Positions 28,326 to 60,280 are shown, counted from the stretch's first letter. The stretch is DNA of 64,000 nucleotides from an uncultured Candidatus Poseidoniales archaeon (GCA_902520595.1 CABYOM010000001.1:528-64527), one strand, 5' to 3'. Translations and numbers: made by a program. The notes: generated by a model not told the origin, from the sequence alone.

Positions 28326-28356
28326 CAGGAACGGTTATTAGAATCCTGAAAGAGTG

Positions 28357-31062: not shown

Positions 31063-31123
31063 ATTGGATTTATTCTACTCCCGAGTTTTCTTTAATGCAA
31101 ATAGAGGTCACCAATGATGACGT

Positions 31124-33466: not shown

Positions 33467-35131
33467 TCACGCATCTGCCATGGCCTTCTCATCAGAAAGA
33501 CCTTTGAGTTCGACTGGATTCAACTCGATGATTGGCTGTGTTTTTGGATGGATTTTCAAGGCGAATTTCACGGGTAATTCTTTTTTCAATCGGATCAATC
33601 GCTTGTTTTCAGCAACGAGCTCTTCATTCACTTTTTGCATGTCTTCAACTTTCTGAATGAGTTCATTGACACGTTGTTCGAGCGCTTCACGTGCCGCAGA
33701 TTCCTTCTTCAGTTCTGATCGAAGCAGACGAGTTGTGTCTTCAATTTTGCCACCCAACTTCATTTGCAATGCTGCTCGAGCAGTGGATTCTTCCTTTACT
33801 TTCGTCGAAACCTGACTGATTTCTCTCTCAAGTTGGTCATGTGCACGAGAGAATTTATCCTTGATCGAATCAAAACTCTTACGGATTTGTGGAACCTTCT
33901 TTGACAACATATCATCAAGCTCACGGCTCAACTTATCGATGGTCTGGAACCGTGCTTCGAGAATATCATCCTCGTCTCCAAGTGCCTTGCGATGACTGTA
34001 AAGCAATCCTGGCATAATAAATGGAATTTCTTCCTTTCCTTTTACATTCTGGAAATAGCGCATTCGTGTCAAGAATTTATTGTACCGTGCTTCAAGGTCT
34101 TCACTGAGTTTTACAACCGCATTTGCAGATTGAGCATCTTCATTTCGTGCGGCTTTTTCCGAGATAAAAACCCCGTGTTCTTTTCGGAGCGGGTCAACAA
34201 CAACAGCGACAAAACGGCCGTCTTGACGGTTTGAGCGAAGATGGCCAAAGGTGTTGATATCAATTCCTGACAAGAAAATACCGATGTCTGGGTGAGTGTG
34301 AATCCATCCGATAATCTGAATGTTTGGAGTATGAGGGCCGCCACATCGACTGTTGGCCATATCACAAGCATCCATTGCCATAGCGAGAGCTCCTCCGTCA
34401 AATTCACAATACCCTGGACTTGCTTCAGTTTGTTTTGGAAAGAAACCACAGGTAACGACATTATTTCCATTATGGTCAATATGTCCAATCAACAAGCCAC
34501 CCATCTCAAGACGGCCGCGTGGCTGAGTGAACACTGTCGTTTGGTCAATAATTTCCTGAGGCACCAATGCTGGGTGGTCTTTCACTCGAGCCGTTCGGCG
34601 GCCTCCACCCGGAATACGTTGTGGAACGACAAAGAACGAACGGCCAATCATATCGTTGGCCATAAGATTGGATACAACTTCTTGGTGGTTATCGCGCACT
34701 TCTAAAGGAGAACCATCGCGAGGTCGCAGACCTGCTCTTTCAACGACCTGCATTACCGTCTCGCCAGGTTGTGGATTGATGTTATGTCGTGAACCATCTT
34801 GCATGATGAGGGTCAAATGTGCTTGTTTATTCGGGATTTCGTCAAGATCGATACCTTCGTCCCAATCGTCATCAAATTCAATTCCAGCCCCACCTGCAAC
34901 TTTCGCAACACCGACGTAAATGGTCGAGTCGCGATGCGCGGCAGCATTGTTATTCGAAATGACTGAACCCATCGCGTCATAAATGTCGAACTGTCCTTTC
35001 GGTGCGAGTTTCATATCCTGAACAGCTTGCTTCAGGGTGGCATTCTGAGGTACTTCGACCCGTTGCTTTTGGGTTTGATCAAGGGTGTTGGCTACAGTCA
35101 GGGGTATCATTTGGTTTTGCATGTTTTTCAT
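33467..35131 (-). CDS. Ubl-Ubl-JAB/MPN(JAMM) metalloprotease with C-terminal coiled coil
   Basis: Two beta-grasp-like units end in 'VAKVAGG' and 'VVPQRIPGGG'. The JAMM motif is complete: 'LEMGGLLIG' ... 'IIGWIHTHPDIGIFLSGID' (E, HxH, S, D). The last ~200 aa are heptad-rich. The likely true start is the second ATG (35122). Confidence 0.8.
   Translation of the reverse strand: MKNMQNQMIPLTVANTLDQTQKQRVEVPQNATLKQAVQDMKLAPKGQFDIYDAMGSVISNNNAAAHRDSTIYVGVAKVAGGAGIEFDDDWDEGIDLDEIPNKQAHLTLIMQDGSRHNINPQPGETVMQVVERAGLRPRDGSPLEVRDNHQEVVSNLMANDMIGRSFFVVPQRIPGGGRRTARVKDHPALVPQEIIDQTTVFTQPRGRLEMGGLLIGHIDHNGNNVVTCGFFPKQTEASPGYCEFDGGALAMAMDACDMANSRCGGPHTPNIQIIGWIHTHPDIGIFLSGIDINTFGHLRSNRQDGRFVAVVVDPLRKEHGVFISEKAARNEDAQSANAVVKLSEDLEARYNKFLTRMRYFQNVKGKEEIPFIMPGLLYSHRKALGDEDDILEARFQTIDKLSRELDDMLSKKVPQIRKSFDSIKDKFSRAHDQLEREISQVSTKVKEESTARAALQMKLGGKIEDTTRLLRSELKKESAAREALEQRVNELIQKVEDMQKVNEELVAENKRLIRLKKELPVKFALKIHPKTQPIIELNPVELKGLSDEKAMADA
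34886..35122 (-). repeat. Copy A of a ~237-bp near-identical duplication (Ubl-coding 5' end)
   Basis: Aligns with 35621..35857 at a constant offset of 735. I see only two mismatches (34889 vs 35624, and the atcctg/atactg change giving D to Y). Confidence 0.9.
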
Positions 35132-35194
35132 CTCCGTTTTGGGTTTTCAATTACTAATTTTGTGAAGTGTTTCTTATTCTGTTAAATTTGACAT
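35132..35194 (-). promoter_or_regulatory. Leader cassette 1: palindromic TATA-like motif (35180-35193) + GGAG RBS
   Basis: Minus strand reads TAG-ATGTCAAATTTAACAGAATAAGAAACACTTCACAAAATTAGTAATTGAAAACCCAAAACGGAGATGAAAAACATG. About 85-90% identical to 36310-36369. Confidence 0.5.
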
Positions 35195-35857
35195 CTAGGC
35201 GTTCAATAGATTTTGAATGTGATTGATGTAAGCACCAATCCGGCGAATAGGGTCGTTTCCAATTTGATTCAGATGTGGTAGAATCTGGCCATGACAAATC
35301 CAATGGCTTGGTTTATTGGTTCCTGGAAGCGTATTGCTTGAGCCTACTCCGTAGGAAACACTTGGCGTATTTCCATTAAAGATGGAGACACTGGGTCGTC
35401 GCGTGATTTGGTCGTGGTTGAGCACATATGCGTGAGGTAAGCCAGATGATGCGTTTGGGCAATGAATGGCAATTTGCCAAAAACCGTTACTGGTTTTTCC
35501 TTTGGATGGAAACTGAAGAGAAATCATAGAGGTATGAGTTGCGTTGGTATGAATTCGAACTGGGCGAAGAGATGGATACTCAACTTTGAGTTCTGCCAAC
35601 CGTTCACGCGGGATGCCTGAAGCTCCACCTGCAACTTTCGCAACACCGACGTAAATGGTCGAGTCGCGATGCGCGGCAGCATTGTTATTCGAAATGACTG
35701 AACCCATCGCGTCATAAATGTCGAACTGTCCTTTCGGTGCGAGTTTCATATACTGAACAGCTTGCTTCAGGGTGGCATTCTGAGGTACTTCGACCCGTTG
35801 CTTTTGGGTTTGATCAAGGGTGTTGGCTACAGTCAGGGGTATCATTTGGTTTTGCAT
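35195..35857 (-). CDS. Ubl-E2 (UBC-like) fusion protein
   Basis: The N-terminal 79 aa are identical, bar one residue, to Ubl1 of the JAB protein and end in 'VAKVAGG'. The remainder follows a UBC pattern: 'RERLAELKVEY', 'FWQIAIHCPNASSGLPHAYVL', 'SHWICHGQIL' (candidate catalytic Cys) and 'IGAYINHIQNLL'. Confidence 0.6.
   Translation of the reverse strand: MQNQMIPLTVANTLDQTQKQRVEVPQNATLKQAVQYMKLAPKGQFDIYDAMGSVISNNNAAAHRDSTIYVGVAKVAGGASGIPRERLAELKVEYPSLRPVRIHTNATHTSMISLQFPSKGKTSNGFWQIAIHCPNASSGLPHAYVLNHDQITRRPSVSIFNGNTPSVSYGVGSSNTLPGTNKPSHWICHGQILPHLNQIGNDPIRRIGAYINHIQNLLNA
35621..35857 (-). repeat. Copy B of the ~237-bp near-identical duplication
   Basis: See copy A (34886..35122). Confidence 0.9.
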
Positions 35858-35877
35858 ATTTCCATCTCCATGGGATT

Positions 35878-35988
35878 TCAGTTGTTGTTTTTTCGCGATT
35901 TATGATATCGGAAATTATTCGGATTCTTTTGATTCGATCGATTATCTCTTCTCTGTTTCTTTGTTTTTGCGTTCGCCATCTTTTTCAT
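35878..35988 (-). CDS. Tiny basic protein (33-36 aa), not in the ORF track
   Basis: Hand-translated as (MKK)MANAKTKKQRRDNRSNQKNPNNFRYHKSRKNNN*. It is preceded by the same GGAGATGAAAAAGATG leader and lies 21 nt after the acidic-protein stop. Confidence 0.4.
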   Translation of the reverse strand: MKKMANAKTKKQRRDNRSNQKNPNNFRYHKSRKNNN

Positions 35989-36009
35989 CTCCATTTTTAC
36001 TTCATATCG

Positions 36010-36309
36010 TCAATAATTGTTATCGTAATACTCTTCACGTTCATCGGGGGTGTCACCAGGCATGTCTGCATACTCAGCAGGTTCTTCTTCTGGATCGTAA
36101 GAGTCTTCATCTTCTTCGATATATTCGTCCCCTTCCTCGTAATCATCCTCGTAATCATCATCGTAATCATCATAGTCGTCATTCATGGTGTTCTGAGAAT
36201 CATCATAATCTTCTTTTGAGTCGTATCCGCGAGACTGATAGTAAGCGTCGTTGTTTGGGTTCATCTGGTTCGAGCGGTTATCATCTGAATGTTTTGACAT
36301 GTTTTTCAT
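36010..36309 (-). CDS. Hyper-acidic D/E/Y-rich small protein
   Basis: 99-aa ORF ('DDYDDYDDDYEDDYEEGDEYIEEDEDSYDPEEEP...') with its own leader cassette. Low complexity but on the correct strand with an RBS. Confidence 0.5.
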   Translation of the reverse strand: MKNMSKHSDDNRSNQMNPNNDAYYQSRGYDSKEDYDDSQNTMNDDYDDYDDDYEDDYEEGDEYIEEDEDSYDPEEEPAEYADMPGDTPDEREEYYDNNY

Positions 36310-36369
36310 CTCCGTTGGTTTTCAATATCTTATTTTGTGAAGTATTTCTAATTCTGTTAAATTTGACGT
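36310..36369 (-). promoter_or_regulatory. Leader cassette 2: motif 36355-36368 + GGAG RBS
   Basis: Minus strand reads TAA-ACGTCAAATTTAACAGAATTAGAAATACTTCACAAAATAAGATATTGAAAACCAACGGAGATGAAAAACATG. Confidence 0.5.
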
Positions 36370-36612
36370 TTAGCCATGACGTGGGCAAGACGAATCATTG
36401 CAACAGGCTCCGCAAGAATCGTTGATACAGTCAGCAGCAGCGAGATTACCGCAATCACATGTATCTGAGCACCCGCAATTGCAATTCTTGGAAGAAGAGC
36501 ATGTAGCCCCACCTGGTCCTTCATGGCATTCTTCATTAGCGGCAATACATGTGTCTCCACATGGTTTTCCGATACAGCATACTGGGTGTCCGTTATTTGG
36601 CATATTTTTCAT
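36370..36612 (-). CDS. Cysteine-rich small protein (20 Cys in 80 aa)
   Basis: 'PVCCIGKPCGDTCIAANEECHEG...NCNCGCSDTCDCG...CGACCNDSSCPRHG'. Has its own leader cassette. Metallothionein- or knottin-like composition; no family recognised. Confidence 0.55.
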   Translation of the reverse strand: MKNMPNNGHPVCCIGKPCGDTCIAANEECHEGPGGATCSSSKNCNCGCSDTCDCGNLAAADCINDSCGACCNDSSCPRHG

Positions 36613-36671
36613 CTCCGTTGGTTTTCATAATCTTGGGTTGTTAAGATTCCAGATAGTTGTTAAATTTGATA
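36613..36671 (-). promoter_or_regulatory. Leader cassette 3: motif 36658-36671 + GGAG RBS
   Basis: Minus strand reads ...TTATCAAATTTAACAACTATCTGGAATCTTAACAACCCAAGATTATGAAAACCAACGGAGATGAAAAATATG. The motif lies inside the 3' end of the upstream ORF. Confidence 0.45.
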
Positions 36672-37096
36672 ATCTCGGATAATGGCCGAGGATCGATACT
36701 TTCTCCTGTTTGTGAATCAAACAGTTTGTATGATGCTGATTTTCTATCTCTGTGCGCGAAAATTAGTCGTCCATGTCGATGCTTACCGTTCGCTTTGACG
36801 TGTTTGCTCCAAGAGATATAGAGTGCCTGAACTAAGATTGTTAATCCTGTAATGTATACGATACAATGAGAAAATAATCCAAATGAATTCAATACTCGAT
36901 CGGTAACTCGAATATGTTCTTCAAGATTCATGACTTCCTCGACCGTATTTGGGAATATGCTCTGACTGACAACTTCTGAAGTTAATTCAGAGATAATCTC
37001 GTGCCTGTTATCGGTCAAACTGAGTTCTACAATGTTTTGATAACCGCCTCCACAAGAAGCAATCACATCACTAATAATAAAAGACAATTTAAGCAC
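36641..37096 (-). CDS. Hypothetical protein with one central TM helix
   Basis: 151-aa ORF with a GTG start that overlaps the preceding small basic ORF by 8 nt. TM 'FSHCIVYITGLTILVQALYISW'. Confidence 0.45.
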   Translation of the reverse strand: MLKLSFIISDVIASCGGGYQNIVELSLTDNRHEIISELTSEVVSQSIFPNTVEEVMNLEEHIRVTDRVLNSFGLFSHCIVYITGLTILVQALYISWSKHVKANGKHRHGRLIFAHRDRKSASYKLFDSQTGESIDPRPLSEIIKFNNYLES

Positions 37097-37253
37097 CCAC
37101 CTTTGCAGTATGTTGTTTTACATCTTTCATGGTCAGGAGGTAGCTTTTCTCTTCTCGGAAGACTTTCCAAGAAGATTTATTTTTCTTGAAACGACGCTGC
37201 GTTTTCGGTTTGTTCATTGTACTCGTTTTTGTTTTTCGGTATGTTCGGGACAT
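37089..37253 (-). CDS. Small basic protein (54 aa)
   Basis: 'MSRTYRKTKTSTMNKPKTQRRFKKNKSSWKVF...'. The ATG at 37253 is preceded by GGAAGTGAACAAATG, the same RBS context as the 221-aa gene. Confidence 0.4.
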   Translation of the reverse strand: MSRTYRKTKTSTMNKPKTQRRFKKNKSSWKVFREEKSYLLTMKDVKQHTAKVGA

Positions 37254-37300
37254 TTGTTCACTTCCTTCATACAATGGCCTCAACCAGAAGATGAGTTTTC

Positions 37301-37314
37301 ATTAAAATTGACAA
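37301..37314 (-). promoter_or_regulatory. Palindromic TATA-like motif copy (TGTCAATTTTAAT on coding strand)
   Basis: Sits 47 nt upstream of the ATG at 37253, immediately after the stop of the 221-aa gene. Confidence 0.4.
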
Positions 37315-37318
37315 AAAG

Positions 37319-37984
37319 CTAGAATATCCAAGCCAATAACTCACCAGCATAGGACAATATACCGACGATGACCCAGACAAGGAGTGCTATAATTGCAATA
37401 AAGAACCAAATTATGAACTCAAGAATTTCGTAGATGAATTCGAATATACTGATAATAAATTCGAATACACTACCTATGAAGTTTGCAACTGCCACTAGAA
37501 AATCAACGAACGATACACCAACTTCCCATAGGAATTCTAAGAATGCCCAAATTTCTTCAAATATCGGCAGAAGGGCGTTGAAAGCAAAGTAAGCACCACC
37601 CAGGATTAAGCCCATTACGGTGACAAAAACGATCGCTTCGAAAATTTCTGGTATTGACGAAAGAATGTTACCAAACAGGGAATTTTTTTCTGCCTGAACA
37701 GGATTTTGAGGCCGTTCAAATCTTTGATTATTTTGACCTAATTCAATTCTCCGATTCTTTTTCCCATGCTTTTTACAATAACGTGAACTGCAACATAATC
37801 TGCATGAATTGGTAATGCAAGTGCGGCTACCGGTGTTCCCACATTTACATCGAGGCTGCGGGTTGGCAACTCTTGGTTTGATCATTTTCGGATTTATATC
37901 CAAGAGAATTTTTGCAGGGAAGGGATTGATTGATCCCGCATCGGGATTTTCAAAAAGGTCTGCAAGGTCAATCCCTTCTTCCAT
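37319..37984 (-). CDS. Cys-rich N-domain + multi-TM membrane protein (candidate effector)
   Basis: N-terminal 'CKCGNTGSRTCITNSCRLCCSSRYCKKH'. The C-terminal ~110 aa are very hydrophobic with reiterated 'FEFI' ('SVFEFIISIFEFIYEILEFIIWFFIAII'). Confidence 0.55.
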   Translation of the reverse strand: MEEGIDLADLFENPDAGSINPFPAKILLDINPKMIKPRVANPQPRCKCGNTGSRTCITNSCRLCCSSRYCKKHGKKNRRIELGQNNQRFERPQNPVQAEKNSLFGNILSSIPEIFEAIVFVTVMGLILGGAYFAFNALLPIFEEIWAFLEFLWEVGVSFVDFLVAVANFIGSVFEFIISIFEFIYEILEFIIWFFIAIIALLVWVIVGILSYAGELLAWIF

Positions 37985-38039
37985 ATGTTCACTTCCAATT
38001 TGTTGTTACTTTCTCATTCGATAACGAAGAGAAAAAGAA

Positions 38040-38052
38040 ATTAAATTTGATA
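38040..38052 (-). promoter_or_regulatory. Palindromic TATA-like motif copy (TATCAAATTTAAT)
   Basis: Sits 55 nt upstream of the ATG at 37984. An RBS-like GGAAGTGAACATATG follows. Confidence 0.4.
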
Positions 38053-38059
38053 ATGAATC

Positions 38060-38248
38060 TCACGCCGAGGAATGAGTGACGGAAAGGAGAACATGTCCAC
38101 ACTCACAACGAGGAAGTTCAATTCCTGTGAACACCATACGTTCTCTGTAAGCGCTGATATCAACGGGAATCTTTTGACCACAACGGCAAACCAGGATAGA
38201 AACCCACTTTCCTTGAGATTCGACTTCATCATCAATCCAAAGTCTCAT
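38060..38248 (-). CDS. Small Zn-ribbon protein (CxC...CxC), translationally coupled to E1-A
   Basis: 'MRLWIDDEVESQGKWVSILVCRCGQKIPV...LPRCECGHVL'. Its ATG (38248-38246) overlaps the E1-A TGA (38247-38245) as ATGA. Confidence 0.55.
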   Translation of the reverse strand: MRLWIDDEVESQGKWVSILVCRCGQKIPVDISAYRERMVFTGIELPRCECGHVLLSVTHSSA

Positions 38249-39801
38249 TCCATCCCCTCCGCCTTTGTGATTGATTGAGGGGGGGCATTCGTGTCTTCTT
38301 GGTCCCAAAGAGCATTTTCAAGTTGTTGAACACCGTCTTTTCGAGATACAATTCCCTGCGAAAGATTGCAATACACTTCATTATAACGCGCATTCCAATT
38401 GACCGAGCCAATACTCGAAATGTTTTGCCCTGTCAGGCGCTGAAGAGCAGAAATAGCTTGTAGAGAGCCTACAAAAGCGTTGGTAATGGCGAGTGAGGAA
38501 AGGGGTACTTCGCCATCTTCTTGACACGAATATACAACCTGGTCATGAGCAACTGAAGGACCATATATTTCGACTAAATTCGTATTTGAAAATTCGGTAT
38601 ATTGTGCAAACAATCCTGTGATTCCTCCGTTTACATACGGTTGATTTTTCCGAGCAGCGATCAAATCAGCAAGAACGCGAGGGCGCATTGCATCAAGACA
38701 GCCAAGAATAGCATCAGTGTGTTCAAGTTGAAGCCGTATTCCATCATCATTCAAAACCTCATAGTGTTGAAGAATGGATTCATCAGTGTCGAAAAGCAAT
38801 TCATCAAGGGCAAATCCTTCTTCTTCATCGGTTTCAACGGTGTTTTGAGGAGATTGAAGGAGGCCATCATGCAGTTCGTAAGCGATTGAAATTTCGGCGT
38901 CGGGAAGGTTGCGATTCAACCAGTCTTTAGCAGCTTCAATTTTTGGCCTTCCAATATCTGCTTCGGAAAAAATAACTTGCCGGTTGAGATTATGACGTTC
39001 AACTTCCATATCTTTATCGAAAACAAGAAGTTGCAGATCACTAAAATTAGAATTTTTTAATCCATTCACGATCGAATGCAGCGCCCACGTACCTAAGCCT
39101 CCTGCCCCAACGATGGTCAAATGACCTGAAGGGTTGGTCTTTGGTTCAGGGAGCGTAAAACGCATGACTGGAAATTTAGGATGAATATTTTCATCCCCAC
39201 CATACACCTGAAGTTTCTTGAGAAGTTCTTGTACCAAGGGAGTATCATCATCTAAACGCATCATTACTCGCTTATGGCCGGTTCCGTCATTTACAGAACG
39301 GATGTTGATGTGAGAATTAATTCCTTCAAGTTGGAAATCGAGATGATTGATACTTCCTTTCATCGAAGGCTCGTTCACCCGAACATTCACTGAAACGGAG
39401 ACTTTTGGCACATCGACTGGAGTGTAGCACTTGGCTCGTCGAAAAATCTCACTCCAAATCAAGCATGCTGAAAGAGTAGCTAGAGAGGGTTCAAAAATCG
39501 GATGAGCGGGTTTTTCGCAAGGTGTGCCGTCGAGAAATACGCCTCCTTGGCCATAGGATACAAGTATCATTGATGGGTCATGTTTCCATTCGAAATCTAT
39601 TGAATCATGAACCCATGAAAGAGTAAATTCCGAGCCTTCAGATTTACTCGGGAAATTCTTTACTCCCAATTGGTCAGCTAATTGCTTCATGGAGTGTTTC
39701 AATGCCTGTGGAATTGATTCCTCATCCACGAAAGTCACGTTTAGTGATTCTACTCTCTCTTGGTGAACCAGACCCCGTTGTCGACTAAAGATATCACTCA
39801 T
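38245..39801 (-). CDS. E1-like (ThiF/MoeB/UBA-family) adenylating enzyme A, two-lobed
   Basis: The C-terminal half has 'LTIVGAGGLGTWAL', 'DKDMEVERHNLNRQ', 'DIGRPKIEAAK', 'CLDAMRPRVL' and 'SCQEDGEVP'. The N-terminal half starts with the ThiF-type 'FSRQRGLV' but lacks GxGxxG. Its ATGA overlap with the Cdc48 stop places the start at 39801. Confidence 0.8.
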   Translation of the reverse strand: MSDIFSRQRGLVHQERVESLNVTFVDEESIPQALKHSMKQLADQLGVKNFPSKSEGSEFTLSWVHDSIDFEWKHDPSMILVSYGQGGVFLDGTPCEKPAHPIFEPSLATLSACLIWSEIFRRAKCYTPVDVPKVSVSVNVRVNEPSMKGSINHLDFQLEGINSHINIRSVNDGTGHKRVMMRLDDDTPLVQELLKKLQVYGGDENIHPKFPVMRFTLPEPKTNPSGHLTIVGAGGLGTWALHSIVNGLKNSNFSDLQLLVFDKDMEVERHNLNRQVIFSEADIGRPKIEAAKDWLNRNLPDAEISIAYELHDGLLQSPQNTVETDEEEGFALDELLFDTDESILQHYEVLNDDGIRLQLEHTDAILGCLDAMRPRVLADLIAARKNQPYVNGGITGLFAQYTEFSNTNLVEIYGPSVAHDQVVYSCQEDGEVPLSSLAITNAFVGSLQAISALQRLTGQNISSIGSVNWNARYNEVYCNLSQGIVSRKDGVQQLENALWDQEDTNAPPQSITKAEGME

Positions 39802-41987
39802 GGTATCACCCACTCGCCTTCATCATCATTATCGTCATCCCAATCGTCATCAAGAATCACATTCTTTTCAACGGAGGCAACGGCTCTCAACAAATGACGT
39901 GAAACGCGAAGACCTTGTTCCAAATCTTCTGTTTTCAGACATACCTCGGTCTTTTCAGCGATGCAGCGACGAGCTGAACAATGCTTGATTTGATCAATGA
40001 ATCCCTTCAATTCTGCACCTGTGGCTTTGTCTCTCAAACGAAGAACTGTGTTCAACCATTCTTGATTGGAAATAGTTGATGGAATATCTTCAATCTGGTA
40101 TTGGAAGAACTCAAAGAAGAGGTCATTGGTGAGTGGCCCAACCTCAATGGATTTACTGAAGCGCCCTGGGCGCAAAAATGCTTCATCGACCAGTTCGATT
40201 TTGTTGGTAGACGCCATAAGATAAATCCCATCTGCAGGCTTCAATCCATCCATCATGGTCAACAATTGAGCCACAACGGAACTCGAATGATGAGCACCTT
40301 CGGAATTATCTCGGTTTCGACCTACTGCGTCGAACTCATCGAAAAACAAGACAACTGGGGCGAGTTCTTCCGCTCGTTGGAACAATTCTCGAACAGCGCG
40401 TTCACTTTCACCAACCCACTTGGACAAGAAATCCGGTCCAGATACGGCCATGAATTGTACGTTTGCCAAACTCGCAGCTGCGCGACCAAGCATGGTTTTA
40501 CCAGTACCGGGCGGTCCGTGAAGCAGGACACCGCCGGAACATGAAAGACCGAGAGATGCATAGATTTCAGGATTGTTAATGGGGTGAACAAGGTGATCGA
40601 TAATCTCGCTTTTAGCACTCGCATGCCCAATCACAGCATCCATTTCAACACGGCCCATTGTTGCCGGACGGCGTTGCTGTGTTGCCCAAGGAGTAAATTT
40701 CTCAAATGCTTGTTCAAAGTCTACAGTCAAGATTTTTAGCCCTTCTAGTTCCCTTTCAGTGAAGTTTTCAGGATTCGTAAGTCTTGGCAGACCGAACTCA
40801 CGATGAAGTCCTTCACCACTCGCATGGCGGCACAAGTTCGCCAGGTCTGCACCGGTGCAGCCTACTGTTTTCATAGCCCAATCGGAAAGGGAAACTCCTT
40901 CCAATGGCATGTTTTTAGAATGTATTTCAAGGATTTTCTCACGGCCATTAACATCAGGATAAGGGACGTGGATTCGGCGGTCAAACCGGCCTGCACGAAG
41001 AAGGGCGGGATCAATTGTTTCGAGAAGATTTGTCGAACCAACGACCAAAACTTGCCCTCGGTCTTCAAACCCATCCAGTTGAATAAGAAGTTCAGTCAAT
41101 ATTCGCTTTTCAAGTTCACCACGACTGTTCTTACGGTCTCCGGCAATAGCATCGATTTCATCGATATAAATGACAGAAGGAGCTTCTCGCTTCGCTTCAG
41201 CAAACTTTTCACGAAGAGCTTGTTCAGAAGCACCGTATACACCACTGATAATTTCAGGGCCACTGATACAGATAAAATTGCATTGAGCCTCTCGGGCTAA
41301 AGCACGTGCAAGGAGCGTTTTTCCTACACCGGGCGGGCCGTAAAGAAGTATTCCTCGCGGAGGTTCCTGTCCCGATTTAACATAAATTTCAGGGTGGATA
41401 AGTGGTACAATTGCAATCTCTTTAATCGCTTCAATGGTTTTGTCAAGTCCACCTATGTCATCAAAAGAAACCGATGGGACATCAATAATTGAACGTCGTG
41501 ACTTTTTACCAATAATTTGGATGTCGATGTCAGGGGTGAGCCAACCATGCTGTGGGCGGCAACGTGTAACTTGAAGTTCGAGTGGCTCTCCATTCAGAGA
41601 AACTGTAAAGTGGTCATCTTTGGAAAGATAAACATCACGAATTGCCGCCTTAACGAGGGGCATTTCGTGGTCTTCGAGGGAACGAGTTGTAGGTTGAATT
41701 CGGACCTTAGCAAATGGGCCTTGAACCTTGAGGTGATCAATCTCAACGGAATCGCCTTCATTGATTTGCGCGTTGATTCGAAGAGTAGGCCCAAGGGCAA
41801 CTGAATCGTAAGGAATGTTCGGGTCGTATCGCAAAACCGCAACCGTGGTTTTTTGGCCTATAATTCGTACAGGGGAACGGCTCGCATAACCGTTGTCTTC
41901 AGCCGCTTGCGTATTCATGTAAACATCGTCTCCAGCTCCGCCATCAATCATTGGTGCAATACAGGTAAATTGGTTCATAATAATCAT
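39798..41987 (-). CDS. Cdc48/p97/VAT-like double-ring AAA+ ATPase
   Basis: N-domain pattern ('VRIIGQKTTVAVL...RINAQINEGDSVEI'). D1 has 'LLYGPPGVGKTLLARA...VIYIDEIDAI'. D2 has 'LLHGPPGTGKTMLGRA...VLFFDEFDAV'. The acidic tail is 'DDDWDDDNDDEGEWVIP'. Confidence 0.88.
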   Translation of the reverse strand: MIIMNQFTCIAPMIDGGAGDDVYMNTQAAEDNGYASRSPVRIIGQKTTVAVLRYDPNIPYDSVALGPTLRINAQINEGDSVEIDHLKVQGPFAKVRIQPTTRSLEDHEMPLVKAAIRDVYLSKDDHFTVSLNGEPLELQVTRCRPQHGWLTPDIDIQIIGKKSRRSIIDVPSVSFDDIGGLDKTIEAIKEIAIVPLIHPEIYVKSGQEPPRGILLYGPPGVGKTLLARALAREAQCNFICISGPEIISGVYGASEQALREKFAEAKREAPSVIYIDEIDAIAGDRKNSRGELEKRILTELLIQLDGFEDRGQVLVVGSTNLLETIDPALLRAGRFDRRIHVPYPDVNGREKILEIHSKNMPLEGVSLSDWAMKTVGCTGADLANLCRHASGEGLHREFGLPRLTNPENFTERELEGLKILTVDFEQAFEKFTPWATQQRRPATMGRVEMDAVIGHASAKSEIIDHLVHPINNPEIYASLGLSCSGGVLLHGPPGTGKTMLGRAAASLANVQFMAVSGPDFLSKWVGESERAVRELFQRAEELAPVVLFFDEFDAVGRNRDNSEGAHHSSSVVAQLLTMMDGLKPADGIYLMASTNKIELVDEAFLRPGRFSKSIEVGPLTNDLFFEFFQYQIEDIPSTISNQEWLNTVLRLRDKATGAELKGFIDQIKHCSARRCIAEKTEVCLKTEDLEQGLRVSRHLLRAVASVEKNVILDDDWDDDNDDEGEWVIP

Positions 41988-42021
41988 TCCATCTTGTTAT
42001 TTCTTTGAGATTCTAGTTTTT

Positions 42022-42035
42022 TGTTAAATATGATA
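42022..42035 (-). promoter_or_regulatory. Palindromic TATA-like motif copy (TATCATATTTAACA)
   Basis: Overlaps the last codons and stop of E1-B, 34-43 nt upstream of the Cdc48 start. Confidence 0.35.
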
Positions 42036-43568
42036 TTTGCAAGGTTCATCAAACCAAGGCGGCTGGGTTGGAGCGAATTGTTCAATCTGTCCTTCGAACC
42101 AGGTGCCTCGGAAATTACGATCTTTGTAATCGGGATTCAAATTCATCATCGTCAGTAAAGCCATCATAGAACCAACCCATGCCGTTGAAGTCACAATTGA
42201 AGCAATTGGTCGAATACCCTCTTCAGTACAAGAGATTACTTCGCTTGAGCGAGCGTTTTCTTTACCATAACGGCAAACCATGCAACCTTTTTGACCGAAG
42301 GTTTCAACGACTCCATGAAGTGCTTCAGTTGCACCATTTATCATGACACGCCCATTGTTAATTGCAGCCTCATTCAGAATTGTTCGAGCGACCATGTTGT
42401 CAAGACAAGCGAGATATATGCTGCTCTTACTTAATGCGTCAAACAACAGTGAAGGTTCAAGCCCGAGGTCATCAAACTCTTCCTCAAAATCGAAATCCTC
42501 TTGCACCAAATGATGTGGAGTGAGATACTCAAAATACGATTCAACATGAATCTTGAGATTCAGTGATTGGAGCTGTTGAGCAGCGGTCAATGCTTTCATT
42601 GAACCAACGTGGGTTTCATTGTAGAGTACTTGGCGATTGAGATTATGAAGTTCTATTTCTGCATCGCCATCGACAACGTGAATCGTTCCTTCTTCCATCT
42701 GCTCAACAAGTAAAGGGGCGCTCCAACTGCCAAGTCCACCTGCTCCCAAGAGGACGATATCATGACCAGAAAGAGACCATGAGGAATCGAATACCTCAAC
42801 AGGTGCATCCCATGGGATCAAACCCAAATCATCTGAAACTGAAAGTTGTTTTTGCGAAGACTGCATCGTTCGAGAAAGGAAATCAAAAGGACTCAAGTTT
42901 GGTTGAGTCGATGGTCGATATCGAGCAAGTGTCGCATGACCATCGCTGGTTAATTGCACGTCAACCAGTGTCCCATCAATTCCCGTGATATGTTTTCTCA
43001 CTTCTTCAAAGTCCGTAGATTCAACGCGGCATGTGACTGTAAACCATGCGTCGCTAATTTTCATGTGGGCCATACAATCAGCATCTCGAAGCATTTGTTG
43101 TAACATTGTTGCAGCTACAGCCACTCGCATCGATGGAGTAAGAACATGCTCTGAATAAATGGGGGATGGCGAAAGAGGTTGACGAGAAATTTTCGCTCGA
43201 ACTCCTTTCGCATAACCATAAAGATCAGCATGTTGAATGGCATGTGACGGATTCAGGCAAAGATGGTAGTCAAATGAAAGAGGTTCAGATTCTTTTAATG
43301 AGGTAAAGGTCTGACGAAACTGAGGACTTTCTTGCTCCCAATCCTCCCATCGCTTCGCGTTTGGAAAAGTAAGTTTCCAAAACACAGAATCCGGCAGAAC
43401 ATTTGGTCGGAGTACTCCGATGAATCCTGACTCTTGCCCTATACCAAACTGCGAGAGGAGAACAAGAAGGTCGCTTACGCCACCAGAGCTTCCAGAAACG
43501 AGTATTTTCAGATTTGAAACTTGTTCTTGGTCAACAAGACCTCGTTGGCGTCGATATTTATCATTCAT
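42024..43568 (-). CDS. E1-like adenylating enzyme B, two-lobed paralog
   Basis: 'YRRQRGLV' then degenerate 'ILVSGSSGGVSDL' in the N-lobe. The C-lobe has 'IVLLGAGGLGSWSA', 'DGDAEIELHNLNRQ', 'CLDNMVARTIL', 'GCMVCRYG' and 'SCTEEGIRP'. The start is taken at 'MNDKYRRQRGLV'. Confidence 0.8.
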   Translation of the reverse strand: MNDKYRRQRGLVDQEQVSNLKILVSGSSGGVSDLLVLLSQFGIGQESGFIGVLRPNVLPDSVFWKLTFPNAKRWEDWEQESPQFRQTFTSLKESEPLSFDYHLCLNPSHAIQHADLYGYAKGVRAKISRQPLSPSPIYSEHVLTPSMRVAVAATMLQQMLRDADCMAHMKISDAWFTVTCRVESTDFEEVRKHITGIDGTLVDVQLTSDGHATLARYRPSTQPNLSPFDFLSRTMQSSQKQLSVSDDLGLIPWDAPVEVFDSSWSLSGHDIVLLGAGGLGSWSAPLLVEQMEEGTIHVVDGDAEIELHNLNRQVLYNETHVGSMKALTAAQQLQSLNLKIHVESYFEYLTPHHLVQEDFDFEEEFDDLGLEPSLLFDALSKSSIYLACLDNMVARTILNEAAINNGRVMINGATEALHGVVETFGQKGCMVCRYGKENARSSEVISCTEEGIRPIASIVTSTAWVGSMMALLTMMNLNPDYKDRNFRGTWFEGQIEQFAPTQPPWFDEPCKYHI

Positions 43569-43572
43569 TTTA

Positions 43573-44127
43573 TCACCGGGTTCGAGCGCGATCATCGGGG
43601 TTTGGATTTTTCAATACATCCTCAATTTGATGCAACAAAAAACCTAATTTTTCCTTCTCTGTTTGATAGGTTGCAAATTGTTCAGAAAACCCTGGGCCCA
43701 TACACACCCCACATATTTCTCTTTGAGGAAGAATGTTGTATCTCCCTTTTTCAAAGATATTCTCGTGTAAAATATTCTCACACTTTGGTGTCAAAATGAA
43801 TACCTGTGGCGCTTCTGAAAAGGAACGTGAATCAATAAGAATTTGATAGTTCATCGCGGTGTAATCTCGGCTTGAGACAACACCCTGAAGATTGACAACA
43901 AAAGCTCCTACTGTGGTTTTTGAACTGTGGTCACGAATTAGATTAAGCGAAGGGTAAGAAGTTAATTTAAAACTATCAAACACTGCTTTCGATAAACTCG
44001 AACCCGAACGAACTCGAAGAGGGACAAGGTACTCATTCCGACTGTTTTCTCGGCTTCGCTCTGCCTCAGATGCTCTACGCAGAAAATCGCCATTGCCATT
44101 AAAAATTCCATATTCTTCATTATCCAT
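43573..44127 (-). CDS. UBC-fold E2-like ubiquitin-conjugating enzyme
   Basis: 'NYQILIDSRSFSEAPQVFILTPKCENILHENIFEKGRYNILPQREICGVCMG...LGFLLHQIEDVLKNPNPDD' follows the E2 core pattern: Y.i.i...P.v.f, H(P)N(I), a catalytic Cys, and ..LL..PNPDD. The track start is a GTG at 44136. Confidence 0.7.
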   Translation of the reverse strand: MDNEEYGIFNGNGDFLRRASEAERSRENSRNEYLVPLRVRSGSSLSKAVFDSFKLTSYPSLNLIRDHSSKTTVGAFVVNLQGVVSSRDYTAMNYQILIDSRSFSEAPQVFILTPKCENILHENIFEKGRYNILPQREICGVCMGPGFSEQFATYQTEKEKLGFLLHQIEDVLKNPNPDDRARTR

Positions 44128-44170
44128 ATTCTTCACTTCACTTTTTTGATTTCTTGAAACCGTTTCATAT

Positions 44171-44184
44171 CATTAAATTTGACA
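44171..44184 (-). promoter_or_regulatory. Palindromic TATA-like motif copy (TGTCAAATTTAATG)
   Basis: Overlaps the stop of the 369-aa gene, 43 nt upstream of the ATG at 44127. Confidence 0.4.
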
Positions 44185-45282
44185 AGAGGGGTGAGTTCTT
44201 GGCACACCTTCAATTATCAACATACGCTTATTCGACGCATTGCGTGATATCCTAGCCACGGCCCATTGCCCCTTGGGATCAACCGAGATTCCAGGTTTCA
44301 AAGCGTAAGACATCTTAAGAGGGGAGTTTGGATGATGAATATTGTACAATTGGATAGGTTCCTCTGACTCAGGAACCTTGACAAAGACATAATGCCCATC
44401 TTGGTAATACGGTCGATTCACTAATGCAGGAGAGTTTTTCCGAGCGAAACGGACGAGGACTCCCTCACAAGATGCCCCTTTTTTCGGAGTGTTTCCTGAG
44501 ATGAGAGCACGTTGCCAACCGCCCGAGGGTTGGAGAACACTGCCTTTGAAGATACTTTGATTCTCTTTCGCTACCGAAGGAATCTTCATTTTACATGGAA
44601 CTGGTTTAATCTTCATTTTGTTGTATTTCTTGCCTATTTTGGGTTGATTGTTGTGCGGTTTGAAGCTAGATGGAACTGGTGTTAGGTCTGGACGGAAGAC
44701 CACGGTTTTACTTGCCTCCGCGTTACGAATTTCGCAGCATCCCCAAAATCCTCGAATACGTTCAATATCGGCGCATTGATAATTCACTTTGATATCTTCT
44801 TGTCCTGTTTGAGGATTGAATAGCGATACTGTATTTCCTTTTCTTGGCGCTTGTGCAAAGACGATGTCTCCGTCTAGATACGGTTCTCCTTCAGTTCGAA
44901 AACGGTACGCATAGGTACCATTTTTTTGATTACGAGGCGTGATGAATACATTGATGTAATCTCCAACCTCAATTCCTGGAATGATAAGTTTGGTTCCATC
45001 CAAGCATTCAGTTCCTGTAAAAGGGCCTTTCAAATTTGTTTCGCCCCAAATTGATTCTACGCGCTTCAACATCCCCAAATGGATCGTAGTCGGTGCTTTT
45101 CCTACGAGTTGATGGTTCAGTGAGTTTCCATGTTTATCCATAGCATACCTCAAACTACCATCTCGAGGTAAAAGGCCAGATTGACTCATTGCCTCATATA
45201 CAGTTGAAGTTTCATCCACGAGAACACGTGTTGAAAGGGTCTCATTTGAATCAAGAATAAACCTCACTTCTCGTAGAGACAT
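44173..45282 (-). CDS. Ubl-domain protein with beta-rich repeat region (possible substrate adaptor)
   Basis: The N-terminal ~75 aa are beta-grasp-like and similar to Ubl2 of the JAB protein ('GLLPRDGSLRYAMDKHGNSL' vs 'GLRPRDGSPLEVRDNHQEVV'), with no terminal GG. The rest is unrecognised. Confidence 0.5.
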   Translation of the reverse strand: MSLREVRFILDSNETLSTRVLVDETSTVYEAMSQSGLLPRDGSLRYAMDKHGNSLNHQLVGKAPTTIHLGMLKRVESIWGETNLKGPFTGTECLDGTKLIIPGIEVGDYINVFITPRNQKNGTYAYRFRTEGEPYLDGDIVFAQAPRKGNTVSLFNPQTGQEDIKVNYQCADIERIRGFWGCCEIRNAEASKTVVFRPDLTPVPSSFKPHNNQPKIGKKYNKMKIKPVPCKMKIPSVAKENQSIFKGSVLQPSGGWQRALISGNTPKKGASCEGVLVRFARKNSPALVNRPYYQDGHYVFVKVPESEEPIQLYNIHHPNSPLKMSYALKPGISVDPKGQWAVARISRNASNKRMLIIEGVPRTHPSCQI

Positions 45283-45375
45283 GCCTTGTTAAGCCAATGA
45301 GAAACTGAAAAACTGTTAAAATTAACAAAGTTTGGCCGTCATAGTAACTAAATAATATAGAAAGGAGGAACACTT
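45283..45375. promoter_or_regulatory. Divergent promoter region with perfect-armed palindrome TGTTAA-AA-TTAACA (45314-45327)
   Basis: Lies between the first minus-strand gene and the CARF-like/wHTH gene. The + side has AAATAATATAG and an AAAGGAGG RBS before the ATG at 45376. Confidence 0.5.
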
Positions 45376-47046
45376 ATGCAATTATGCCTCGTAGAATTTT
45401 CTCGTCCCAACAAAGATTCTGGCGAGTACTTTTCAGTAGATTTTACCGACGCAGTATCCAATCACGAAGTTGATGAAATCATTCTTTTCCAATCGACAGA
45501 CCACGTTTGCAATGAACTTAGAGAGGAGTTGGAAGCGAAATTCCCACAAGCAACCATCCGCCTTGAACAACTTGAACCAATTTCAACTGACATGATCATG
45601 CATGAGATGATGCAGCTGCCATGGAATTTATTGCGACAGATTCTTTCAAAACTTGACGAAAGTCAAGACTCTCTATTTGTTCTCGGTCGTGGCACAAGTC
45701 TGCATCAGCATGTCATGTGGCTAACTGCTGAAATTCGAGGAAGCAAGATTATTTCCATCGATGAGCCGAATGTTGAACTCTTTCATGTTGGCTCTTCAAG
45801 AATAAATACAGAGATCGCTAAAGCAACCCTTGGGGCGTTCGTTCGTCTGCATGTTCAGGAAATCAATGAAAACATTACTGGTAAAAATGGCTGGTTCAGT
45901 GCGAATGATATTTCAAAGTTGCCTGGTGCTGTTGCCTCAGGAATAAACGCAGCAACACAACTGGCCTTGAAAGAAGGGTATTTGCTTAAAGAAGACACAA
46001 CATCCGGTAATACAGTGTACAAATTAACTCCAAAAGGCTGGACTCTGTCCCTAAAAAATTACATTGAATCGAAAGGTGTTGAAGATGAAGGTTTGAAGGA
46101 GATTTTGATTTCTTTCGCCCGACTCCCAAAAATAGCGTCTGCAGTAGGTCACAATGCACGACCACCACTCCTTACCTCGCAAATTTCTGCTGCGGGCATT
46201 CACGATGGTTTACTGGTCGTTCTTCAAAAAATAGATGATTCAATTGAGGGGTCGCACGTAATGACACTGGATGAAGCGTGTGATTTTTTCACAGAGCCAG
46301 AACTTGTTGGGGATCTGAGGGCCGCACAAGAAATACTACGGCAAAGGTGTGTTTACGATTGTGTTGATGTGAAAAATCACTTGGTCGTCATTAATCCCGT
46401 CTATGGAGAAGATTTTCAATTGCTCTTCTCAAAACATCTTCTTGCTGTTCTTGAAGATTTTGAAAAGCAATACGGCCGCCATCACTGGAATTTTGACATT
46501 ACAAGTCCAGTGAATCAGATTAAGCCTGCCGTTTCATCTTTCTCAAACGTTACGAAAGCCTCAACATGCTACATTCTCAAGTCTAAAGGTGAAAAAGGAG
46601 CAGTAATAGAAAAAGTCGAACTCTCTCGACACCCTCGCTATTCCCACAAACTGTCTGTTCCAAACTGGGGAGCCCTTGAGATAATGAATACAAAAATCGC
46701 TTCTGGGTATCGGAATGTTCTAGTTGCACTCATGCTCCTCGAAAATGTAAATTCCAAGAAATCATCAAACAGCCTTCCGTTTGACGATGTGGAAGAAGAA
46801 AATTTTGATGGCGTGGAGTGGTCTGAAATTGTTACTTTTGTTCAAGATTTGAAAAGCCCATATGACCTCAAGAAAGGAATCATCACTGGAAGCTCAACTC
46901 GAATGAAAAAACTCATTCAATCAAAACTTGTTCGTCGTAATGTCGCTGATGAAGGGTCTTCAGTTCACCGCTTTTCACTCACCAATGAAGGCTACCTTGT
47001 AGCAAGTCAACTGTATGGCGACATTAGCCGGGAGGGGATGGCGTGA
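45376..47046 (+). CDS. Tandem CARF-like + winged-helix regulator (Csa3-like architecture, duplicated)
   Basis: The N-terminal Rossmann-like unit has 'VDEIILFQSTD' and 'LFVLGRGTSLHQHVMWLTAEI' (the GGT-type CARF loop). wHTH-like stretches are 'EGYLLKEDTTSGNTVYKLTPKGW' and 'KLVRRNVADEGSSVHRFSLTNEGY'. A second Rossmann-like unit lies between them. Confidence 0.4.
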   Translation: MQLCLVEFSRPNKDSGEYFSVDFTDAVSNHEVDEIILFQSTDHVCNELREELEAKFPQATIRLEQLEPISTDMIMHEMMQLPWNLLRQILSKLDESQDSLFVLGRGTSLHQHVMWLTAEIRGSKIISIDEPNVELFHVGSSRINTEIAKATLGAFVRLHVQEINENITGKNGWFSANDISKLPGAVASGINAATQLALKEGYLLKEDTTSGNTVYKLTPKGWTLSLKNYIESKGVEDEGLKEILISFARLPKIASAVGHNARPPLLTSQISAAGIHDGLLVVLQKIDDSIEGSHVMTLDEACDFFTEPELVGDLRAAQEILRQRCVYDCVDVKNHLVVINPVYGEDFQLLFSKHLLAVLEDFEKQYGRHHWNFDITSPVNQIKPAVSSFSNVTKASTCYILKSKGEKGAVIEKVELSRHPRYSHKLSVPNWGALEIMNTKIASGYRNVLVALMLLENVNSKKSSNSLPFDDVEEENFDGVEWSEIVTFVQDLKSPYDLKKGIITGSSTRMKKLIQSKLVRRNVADEGSSVHRFSLTNEGYLVASQLYGDISREGMA

Positions 47047-48236
47047 CTGAAGAAGGCGAGTTTACTGTTGAAGATTTGCGTAAATTCCACGAACAAGAAG
47101 GTGAAGAGCCAAGTCTTGTCTGCCCCCACTGCGGCCCTATTTTTACATTAATTGATGAAGTTGAAGAGATGCGTCTAAGAGGGTTTGTAAAACACCAAAC
47201 TTCTCAATCAGATGAAGTGTATATTCTCGCTAAATTTGGGATATGTGGCGGAAAACACGACGGCATAGAGAACATTTCGCCCTATGGGGTCCCACTCATA
47301 CGCGAAGACGATTATAATCCAACGATTCCAAGGGCGCAACCCACTCCTGAAGAGCTCGCAGAGTTTGACCAGGAATATGATGCACCAGCGTGGGTACCAC
47401 AACCAAGTAATGAGACAAAGAATCATACCAAAACAAGTGCATCTACCGCGTTAGGCGATTATTTGTATGAATTGGATCCTCCCTACGTTATTGAACAATT
47501 CATTTCGGCTTGGCAAGAAGAAGAACATAACGAAAATCTCGATAAACAGAATGCTGCAAATGAGTGGTTCGATTGTTTATGGCCATTCATTAAAGACACA
47601 TTGGACGTCAAGGAAGGAGCCACGATTAAAGAAAACCTACTTGTCACAGTCTACCTTCATAAAACCGCTGTAATGAGGCATATAGAGCCGCTCTGGATGT
47701 TCTGGAAAAGGTTTGGTATGGGAAAAAGAGCACTCGAAAGGGCGTTGTTATCATTTCCTGCTGATTTACCAAGTCACTTCCAAGACCTTTTCACGATTAT
47801 TGAACGTGATTATGAGCCTGAGCGCTCGACCATCGAATCACTTGTCAACACCCTTGTTCGCAATAAAATATGTCCTGCGATGAGTGGTTCAGAAATGCAA
47901 GCCTTCATCCAAAATGCGACGGATTTCCTTGGAAAAATGAAACAAGCACCCTACGGTAATGTGAGTTGTTATGAATTTTTGACTTTAGAATCTCTTATTG
48001 CAGATTCCATGGCTCTTGGCGGTCAAACGCTGCCCCATGCTGGAATCATTGAACTTGTCTGTGTCTATGCAACCATGAGGCAAAAAAGCAGTTCTGCTGA
48101 TGGGTTCTTGCGGACAGTTTTCCCCAGTGAGGCTGACCCTCTCTGGAAGGCTGTTCTCTCACAACACGGAGCAAAAATCGGAATCGAACGAATGATTAAC
48201 AACTTGATAACTCATATCGAAACACATACACAATAG
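47043..48236 (+). CDS. Hypothetical protein with N-terminal Zn-ribbon-like motif
   Basis: 397 aa. The GTGA overlap with the upstream stop suggests coupling. 'CPHCG...CGGKH', then a helical region. No family recognised. Confidence 0.5.
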   Translation: MTEEGEFTVEDLRKFHEQEGEEPSLVCPHCGPIFTLIDEVEEMRLRGFVKHQTSQSDEVYILAKFGICGGKHDGIENISPYGVPLIREDDYNPTIPRAQPTPEELAEFDQEYDAPAWVPQPSNETKNHTKTSASTALGDYLYELDPPYVIEQFISAWQEEEHNENLDKQNAANEWFDCLWPFIKDTLDVKEGATIKENLLVTVYLHKTAVMRHIEPLWMFWKRFGMGKRALERALLSFPADLPSHFQDLFTIIERDYEPERSTIESLVNTLVRNKICPAMSGSEMQAFIQNATDFLGKMKQAPYGNVSCYEFLTLESLIADSMALGGQTLPHAGIIELVCVYATMRQKSSSADGFLRTVFPSEADPLWKAVLSQHGAKIGIERMINNLITHIETHTQ

Positions 48237-48256
48237 GCAGAAGAGGGGGTGAAGAA

Positions 48257-60257: not shown

Positions 60258-60280
60258 ATCAATAAGATCTCAACTATCTA

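Follow-up and report, generated by a model that had tools for sequence, protein, structure and literature searches.

Are the short, nearly palindromic elements that recur in front of the genes of one archaeal island the operators of a neighbouring regulator, or are they the promoters of the genes themselves? The question arises from a 64,000-nucleotide (nt) stretch of DNA, hereafter the window, from an uncultured Candidatus Poseidoniales archaeon (GCA_902520595.1, CABYOM010000001.1:528-64527). The window contains an island of genes for ubiquitin-like (Ubl) proteins, two E1-like proteins, a Cdc48-like ATPase and a JAB peptidase, in which an earlier note had described eight copies of a palindrome, TGTYAA-NN-TTRACA, overlapping TATA-like sequence. 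Their dyad symmetry had been taken as the mark of a dimeric operator, plausibly bound by a CARF-like, winged helix-turn-helix (wHTH) protein of 556 amino acids (aa) encoded next to them. Our analysis of the sequence indicates, with a probability of roughly 75%, that the eight sites (boxes 1 to 8) are a family of archaeal core promoters, each made of a TFB-recognition element (BRE) and a TATA box, and that in the island's variable half they are part of a portable module of promoter and leader.

All eight sites exist where they had been placed or at most 1 nt away (box 4 is shifted by 1 nt; Table 1), and all are sense-oriented relative to the genes they serve. The reported gap of 31-55 nt holds between the 14-mer and the first possible start codon, and reaches at most 57 nt where a second ATG is better placed. 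The sites had also been said often to overlap the stop codon of the preceding gene. This is true of two, which contain the stop codons of the 369-aa gene (44173-44175) and of E1a (42024-42026); the others begin 1-7 nt past a stop codon, the exception being box 3, inside the 3' end of a 151-aa open reading frame (ORF). The boxes lie on or just past stop codons because the island is compact. The last codons of E1a, which ends ..CKYHI-stop, and of the 369-aa protein, which ends ..CQI-stop, are written in the next gene's box (42024-42035 and 44173-44184), so these C-terminal residues and the predicted promoters are under joint constraint.

The palindrome itself proved to be a poor description of these recurring sites. 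Its literal pattern, TGTYAANNTTRACA, fits only boxes 1 and 8, although these two matches compare with 0.03 expected in the window. On the gene (minus) strand the 10-mer TCAAATTTAA occurs 6 times versus 0.55 expected, with five of the six being island sites, and TYAWWTTTAAYR gives 7 matches versus 0.48 expected, every one of them in the island and on the minus strand. When one mismatch was allowed the 10-mer core was found 16 times against 12.6 expected, which is not above chance, and the signal thus consists of near-exact copies and of their placement. The sixth exact copy of TCAAATTTAA (51910-51919, minus strand) is antisense within a 2049-aa gene, has flanks that do not fit and scores 10.2 bits (see below); it is probably due to chance. 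A bacterial sigma-70 reading of the TTGACA on the plus strand was rejected because this is an archaeon and all of the genes served lie on the opposite strand.

In place of the literal pattern we used a directional word and an 18-nt weight matrix. The matrix was built solely from 22 related loci of Marine Group II (MGII; Poseidoniales) archaea, namely 21 metagenome loci and one locus of a metagenome-assembled genome (MAG), which were collected by a protein-based search blind to the motif and whose E1a proteins are 69-94% identical. On the gene strand the word reads T-R-T-C-A-A-W-T-T-T-A-A-Y-A-R-A-A-A (logo of 55 unique sites). The eight sites are the top nine matches to the matrix in the window (12.1-25.7 bits, the best other match scoring 11.7 bits); there are nine matches because the divergent site scores on both strands. 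At a threshold of at least 12 bits, the 12-kb island gave 9 matches and the 36 kb of host DNA in the window gave none, while 57 kb of related host loci held 5, all of them intragenic and none above 16.5 bits. The earlier note had named a similar motif density in other A+T-rich DNA as a result that would undo its proposal; no such density was seen in the available sequence, and a stretch of 36% G+C at 48-56 kb has only weak matches.

Table 1. Positions in the window of the boxes, of the transcription starts predicted from sequence, and of the associated leaders and genes.
Feature	Position	Strand	Sequence	Remarks
Box 1	35180-35193	-	TGTCAAATTTAACA	25.7 bits; upstream of Ubl-JAB gene
Box 2	36355-36368	-	CGTCAAATTTAACA	23.1 bits; upstream of acidic 99-aa/33-aa/Ubl 220-aa unit
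Box 3	36658-36671	-	TATCAAATTTAACA	20.6 bits; within 3' end of 151-aa ORF, upstream of Cys-rich 80-aa gene
Box 4	37300-37313	-	TGTCAATTTTAATG	21.9 bits; upstream of 54-aa basic and 151-aa genes
Box 5	38039-38052	-	TATCAAATTTAATT	12.1 bits (weakest); upstream of Cys-rich/transmembrane 221-aa gene
Box 6	42022-42035	-	TATCATATTTAACA	23.0 bits; upstream of Cdc48-like AAA+, E1b and zinc-ribbon genes
Box 7	44171-44184	-	TGTCAAATTTAATG	18.3 bits; upstream of 187-aa gene and E1a
Box 8	45314-45327	both	TGTTAAAATTAACA	perfect palindrome; 16.5 bits minus, 13.4 bits plus; in 93-bp divergent region
Predicted starts	~35156, 36331, 36634, 37276, 38015, 41998, 44147, 45290	-		
Predicted start	45351	+		
Cassette copy 1	35120-35194	-	CTTCACAAAA, TTGAAAAC, GGAGATGAAAAACATG	75 nt; box, then the three blocks in this order
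Cassette copy 2	36298-36369	-		72 nt; before acidic gene
Cassette copy 3	36601-36672	-		72 nt; before Cys-rich gene
Ribosome-binding block only	35977-35992	-	GGAGATGAAAAAGATG	before 33-aa basic gene; no promoter box
Ribosome-binding block only	35855-35869	-	GGAGATGGAAATATG	before Ubl 220-aa gene; no promoter box
Island genes served by boxes	33467-45282	-		Ubl / E1 (two) / Cdc48-like / JAB island; predicted units 1-8 listed in transcription order
Unit 1		-		369-aa gene
Unit 2		-		187-aa gene, E1a (ThiF domain)
Unit 3		-		Cdc48-like double AAA+ ATPase, E1b (ThiF), 62-aa zinc ribbon
Unit 4		-		Cys-rich membrane (transmembrane) protein, 221 aa
Unit 5		-		54-aa basic gene, 151-aa gene
Unit 6	36370-36612	-		Cys-rich 80-aa gene
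Unit 7	36309 down to 35195	-		acidic 99-aa, 33-aa basic (35878-35979) and Ubl 220-aa genes
Unit 8	33467-35131	-		Ubl-JAB gene (554-aa JAB peptidase)
Divergent operon	45376-56180	+		genes of 556, 397, 593 and 2049 aa
556-aa gene, candidate regulator	45376-47046	+		modelled as CARF-like Rossmann, wHTH, second alpha/beta and C-terminal wHTH domains

The directional word divides readily into two parts. Its left half, R-T-C-A-A-W, would be a BRE and its right half, T-T-T-A-A-Y-A-R, a TATA box, so that each box would recruit TBP, TFB and RNA polymerase, with transcription starting ~24 nt downstream. In the archaeal consensus a BRE of RNWAAW is followed directly by a TATA box of TTTAWATR, centred ~27 bp upstream of the start, and then by an A/T-rich proximal element and a pyrimidine-purine initiator (bioRxiv 10.64898/2026.06.17.732947). 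The putative BRE agrees with this consensus at 5/6 positions, always lies on the side away from the gene, and its two variable positions coincide with R and W in the consensus; the putative TATA box agrees at 6/8 positions. The invariance of TTTAA is not independent evidence, since TTTAA was the fixed anchor of the pattern with which the sites were collected. The island word departs from the consensus in having C for W at BRE position 3 and Y-A for A-T at TATA positions 6-7. The sense orientation of the boxes and the A/T drift at orthologous sites (see below) are further likenesses to known core promoters, as is the distance to the ATG, which fits leaders of 8-34 nt. Most of these predicted leaders have a strong Shine-Dalgarno sequence, GGAG or GGAAGTGA, before the ATG. 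In an alignment of 26 cassettes the nucleotide 24 nt past the box is always A, at the position expected of the start, and a pyrimidine-purine step occurs 22-26 nt downstream at 9/9 promoters, which taken alone is weak evidence and is consistent with the prediction. We infer TBP/TFB binding, the start positions and the independent transcription of each unit. The boxes would drive nine transcription units, eight on the minus strand and, as the ninth, the divergent 556-aa operon, which would use the one palindromic copy in common with the minus strand. The motif thus behaves as the promoter element that the earlier note had foreseen, with a TATA-like core and many separate units headed by it, and it is conserved across related islands.

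This conservation is seen both in the placement of the box and in its sequence. In all 22 related loci the sense strand has more copies of the 10-mer core, with one mismatch allowed, than the antisense strand, and the box occupies the same gene junctions. Fifteen unique orthologous sequences of the junction between E1a and the Cdc48-like gene all have AAATATCATATTTAA. This stretch overlaps the final E1a codons (..KYHI-stop), and three synonymous third positions are fixed in them while adjoining codons vary. Box 6, at this junction, is also kept in a distant locus (L023). The TTGTCAAATTTAATGAAA before the 187-aa gene hardly changes between loci, in contrast to the preceding coding sequence and the following leader, which diverge, and box 1 is kept in a non-coding context in L005, L007, L013, L016 and L018. 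The box before the 54-aa gene keeps its distance to the ATG while its sequence drifts between TCAATTTTAA, TTAAATTTGA and TTATTTTTAA, and such an interchange of A and T is typical of TATA boxes, which these sequences are predicted to be. One clade has lost the box at the 221-aa junction. The same boxes, including TATCATATTTAACAAAAA before the Cdc48 gene, occur in an island much more distant than the 22 loci, with a 556-aa homologue only 39% identical; in a locus at 30% identity that is without the E1 and Cdc48 domains, the boxes are mostly missing.

Comparison with the promoters of the host showed different boxes there. We took host upstream regions from the window (1-28000 and 56200-64000) and from three syntenic loci of related genomes, ~93 kb in all, and none of these regions reached 12 bits with the island matrix. 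The host boxes read TTTAAG, TTCAAG, TTATTTAAG or TTATAT, with G-rich sequence before them, and lie 22-28 nt from the ATG, because of which most host genes are apparently leaderless. The island boxes are much more uniform than these promoters of the host's own, and the sequences suggest that the box is an island-specific promoter class. It would be either a near-optimal form of promoter that ordinary host genes do not use, or one in which the TRTCAAA half is read by a dedicated factor.

Several points weigh against reading the boxes as BRE/TATA promoters. About 80 host genes were checked and are without the island box, so that the island boxes are not simply the generic host promoter, and the TRTCAAA half could be read by a factor other than the housekeeping TFB. 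The island word agrees with RNWAAW-TTTAWATR at 11/14 positions in total, and that consensus is one of Sulfolobales; no promoter description or consensus for MGII archaea was found in the literature searched. Part of the conservation at two of the sites is shared with protein-coding constraint. Finally, promoter activity and start sites are here predictions made from sequence only.

The symmetry of the motif bears on whether it is also an operator. The copy in the divergent region does have the perfect 6-bp arms that had been described for it, and such arms occur at 6/82 unique sites. The proposal that dyad symmetry marks a dimeric operator was not borne out. The conserved word is directional, since position 4 pairs with position 11 as C/A, which is non-complementary, in 59/82 unique sites, and positions 2 and 13, in the outer arms, show no symmetric covariation (odds ratio 0.39, in the wrong direction). 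Conservation runs on past the box on the 3' side only (RAAA), and orthologous divergent regions keep one arm only; neither among the 82 unique sites nor in these regions was there a conserved inverted repeat of the kind expected of a Csa3-type operator. The symmetry appears to be largely a by-product of a BRE (..AAW) abutting a TATA box (TTTAA..). Box 8 itself is separated by 31 nt from the start codon of the 369-aa gene on the minus strand and by 48 nt from that of the 556-aa gene on the plus strand; most related loci keep only the half reading ..ATTTAACAAAA on the 556-aa strand, 45-48 nt from the 556-aa ATG. The most plausible role of this copy is therefore that of a promoter for the 556-aa operon, and it probably also serves the 369-aa gene on the other strand, which would be almost leaderless. 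At the predicted 556-aa start there is also a conserved block, CATAGTAACTAAATAATAT (45340-45360, plus strand), containing a small palindrome, TAGT-A-ACTA, that may be a site of autoregulation, but related loci do not strictly preserve the palindrome.

The 556-aa protein does model as CARF-like with probable winged helices, as had been supposed. Its AlphaFold2 model (pLDDT 73.7) has an N-terminal Rossmann-like part, a helix-wing segment, an alpha/beta domain and a C-terminal helix-wing segment. Foldseek matched the N-terminal part to Cad1-CARF, the ring nuclease Sis0811, SSO1393, Cami1, Cam1 and Csm6 at probabilities of 0.96-1.0, with low TM-scores of 0.45-0.57 on CARF-only chains, and several of the matched proteins combine CARF and wHTH domains. 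The CARF fold is thus predicted at the level of structure only: the protein has no Pfam, NCBIfam or PADLOC match, and no CARF signal was found at the sequence level in it or in its remote homologues. The secondary structure is consistent with a wHTH at about residues 146-233 and 482-555. These segments gave sub-threshold matches to EarA, MarR, QsrR and AspA and weak ones to TrmB and to PadR-type proteins, and in distant family members the same segments gave weak matches to EarA, TrmB, DUF4364 and HVO_A0261_N; two winged-helix domains are probable, as far as the model goes. The family is confined to these archaea (26 close clusters, ~50 representatives among 1.8 billion).

It is possible, though we consider it unlikely, that the motif is primarily an operator of this protein, with a nucleotide signal switching all nine promoters including its own. 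Binding would take place on or next to the TATA box and could repress or activate, and this would be compatible with the sites being promoters. The modelled CARF-like and two wHTH segments are what such a regulator might have, its gene adjoins the island wherever a locus extends to that point, the family is narrow, and the gene's own promoter carries a box. A dedicated reader is also conceivable because host promoters are without the TRTCAAA half. There is moreover a precedent in the Csa3-type CARF-wHTH factors, which regulate promoters and for which it was proposed that they help TFB onto a non-canonical TATA box (PMC8844856); this would fit a directional site. The directional word, the absence of symmetric covariation and the rarity of perfect palindromes all argue against the operator, as do the single arm conserved in divergent regions and a box that stays the same between islands although their 556-aa proteins share only 39% identity. 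A simple dimeric operator is disfavoured because there is no conserved dyad symmetry and the box is constant across divergent homologues. No CRISPR array, cas gene or recognisable cyclase that could produce cyclic oligoadenylate was found in the window, which leaves the supposed ligand without a source, and the sequence-level CARF signal is likewise missing. Searches of the island's proteins of unknown function with Pfam, NCBIfam and PADLOC gave no TBP, TFB or other annotated regulator. A dedicated regulon, in which TRTCAAA would be read by the CARF-like/wHTH protein or by a TFB that it recruits and a nucleotide second messenger would switch on all nine promoters together, seems to us distinctly doubtful.

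The Csa3 family of Sulfolobales (PMC8844856, PMC8699464, PMC5389559) is the closest parallel to such a regulator. As there, a gene for a CARF-like and wHTH protein adjoins genes that it possibly controls, the DNA concerned is promoter-proximal and partly palindromic, and the notion of a regulator working together with TFB at an unusual TATA box could apply. The 556-aa protein differs in being twice the size, in having two alpha/beta plus wHTH modules and in its lack of a sequence-level CARF match, and the island differs in its lack of a CRISPR-Cas context, in a motif not conserved as a palindrome and in binding that is only hypothetical.

Three of the boxes head a longer repeat. The leader cassette of ~75 nt that had been noticed before the JAB, acidic and Cys-rich genes was found at all three, measuring 72-75 nt from box to ATG; over 57 nt, the copy before the JAB gene shares 88% identity with that before the acidic gene. 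Across loci, 30 unique cassettes measure 71-75 nt, bar one 46-nt deletion derivative. Four blocks are common to them: the box followed by GAA; CTTSACAAAA, shortly before the predicted start; TTGAAAAC, near the beginning of the leader; and GGAGATGAAAAA-N-ATG. The ribosome-binding block, GGAGATGRAAA, also recurs before two further genes.

Such a leader, with boxes at or just past stop codons, could suggest that the element acts at the level of RNA, as a processing site, as a terminator of the upstream gene, or as a structured leader within one long transcript. Read-through transcripts are in fact probable, because there are no consistent oligo-T terminators between the units. A structured RNA or riboswitch was rejected, since RNAalifold found 0 conserved pairs in 26 cassette copies and an Rfam scan of the window found tRNA only and no leader family; on the same grounds the leader is taken to be an unstructured, A-rich translation-initiation region. 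The motif offers only a run of 3 U, which would make a poor archaeal terminator, and the A/T drift, the BRE/TATA fit and the fixed distance to the start codon point to a promoter at the level of DNA. We regard an RNA-level element as highly improbable.

The cassettes also shed light on how this half of the island changes. Cassettes within one locus are more alike than orthologous cassettes of other loci, which suggests duplication and gene conversion, and L001 has three tandem 219-bp units whose cassettes are identical from the box through the ribosome-binding block. The gene content of this half is a mosaic that differs between loci downstream of the zinc-ribbon gene, with breakpoints in conserved blocks, either the box or the GGAGATGAAAA block. 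For example, in L005, which is without the 221-aa gene, the zinc-ribbon gene runs at its end into the leader of the 54-aa gene, with the junction precisely inside the box, and the gene that follows the 151-aa ORF is, depending on the locus, the Cys-rich 80-aa gene, the 33-aa basic gene or a Ubl fusion. Arrays of promoter-leader modules before tiny ORFs or Ubl fusions were observed in L001 (17051-17700), L016 (8480-10080) and L018 (13790-16890), and this variable end of the island expands and contracts.

These breakpoints, the exchangeable genes and the tandem units could be read as the work of recombination sites: motif and leader would then mainly be the sites of mobile, integron-like gene cassettes, with promoter activity secondary. 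We find this quite improbable. Domain searches found no integrase or recombinase domain in any island protein, and the common sequence amounts to only 10-18 bp plus leader, which is enough for homologous or microhomology-mediated exchange. Furthermore, the box is equally conserved at the junctions of the 369-aa and 187-aa genes and of E1a and the Cdc48-like gene, which never vary, and its spacing is fixed to the downstream ATG and not to cassette ends. The resemblance to integron attC cassettes lies in short, partly palindromic sequences between small genes of one orientation, a set that differs from strain to strain. Unlike these, the island has no integrase and an archaeal host, its sites are 14 bp (a box of 14-18 bp) versus 57-141 bp, and they stand upstream of genes with their own predicted promoter and ribosome-binding site. 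We take the mosaic to be ordinary recombination at repeated promoter-leader modules. The BRE/TATA promoter would thus be the first part of a 72-75-nt module, followed by the unstructured leader and the ribosome-binding site, which would have been copied before unrelated small and Ubl-fusion genes and would supply homology where genes are gained, lost or swapped.

The island in which the boxes are found stands out from its surroundings, with 36-45% G+C versus 47-50% in the flanks of the window. The window encodes an archaeal-type Pus10, whose identity is 93% to the Pus10 of an MGII MAG and 82% to one with a Poseidoniales label, and the sole relative of E1a among species-representative genomes (71% identity) is in an uncultured Poseidoniales MAG. 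Two close relatives (L031 and L032, with Pus10 93% and 88% identical) do not have the island at the syntenic position; there, in place of window positions ~28000-56200, TauD/GRDP or phosphatase genes adjoin DsrE, MMPL and Pus10. The island is therefore part of the flexible genome. A viral origin was rejected, as viral contigs held no relative of E1a and gave 5 isolated single matches to the cassette pattern. A literature search yielded no paper specific to this island.

The 220-aa and 554-aa proteins have a common N-terminus of 79 residues (98.7% identical), encoded by a 241-nt direct repeat (34886-35126 and 35621-35861; 99% identical). This N-terminus models as a ubiquitin fold, with an invariant Gly-Gly at its end. 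Related loci have up to five Ubl-X fusion genes, and the repeat points to gene conversion and to a Ubl family whose members are fused to C-terminal domains that vary. As context, the island resembles prokaryotic Ubl-E1-JAB operons (Iyer et al. 2006, PMC1779556; Bil/Bub, PMC10557695 and PMC11601596; CBASS Cap2/Cap3) in that the genes served by the boxes encode two ThiF/E1-like proteins, a JAB peptidase and ubiquitin-fold domains ending in an invariant Gly-Gly. The island differs from them in its Cdc48-like double AAA+ ATPase, its Ubl domains fused to variable C-terminal domains, its lack of a recognisable E2 and its archaeal host, and it gives only weak partial matches to models of defence systems.

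We also noted several features of the neighbouring genes. The divergent operon is conserved and was found with the Ubl, E1 and Cdc48 genes in every locus that extends far enough; its 397-aa protein has an N-terminal CPHC motif and its 2049-aa protein several P-loop NTPase-like segments. A 12-nt tandem repeat in the acidic 99-aa gene (36125-36176, minus strand) encodes a DDY/DEY-rich tract. Convergent to the JAB gene are the genes of two large proteins of 902 and 765 aa without a family match (28354-33421, plus strand). No promoter box stands in front of them; a homologue of the 765-aa protein occupies the same position in L013, and both genes may belong to the island.

The uncultured Marine Group II archaea abound in surface ocean waters, and the boxes give a testable promoter model for them, with nine predicted starts. 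The flexible island would use a uniform, leadered and Shine-Dalgarno-dependent module for its expression, unlike the mostly leaderless genes of its host. Ubl-fusion and Cys-rich genes, which form a variable set, are shuffled at boundaries that this module marks, and it helps to delimit and compare the island, in which the boxes frame an unstudied Ubl/E1/Cdc48/JAB system. If the CARF-like protein does control the boxes, the island would be a tractable example of signal-regulated ubiquitin-like machinery in archaea. Were there to be a dedicated regulon, it would represent a signal-controlled, ubiquitin-like conflict system in planktonic archaea and a case of CARF signalling outside CRISPR-Cas.

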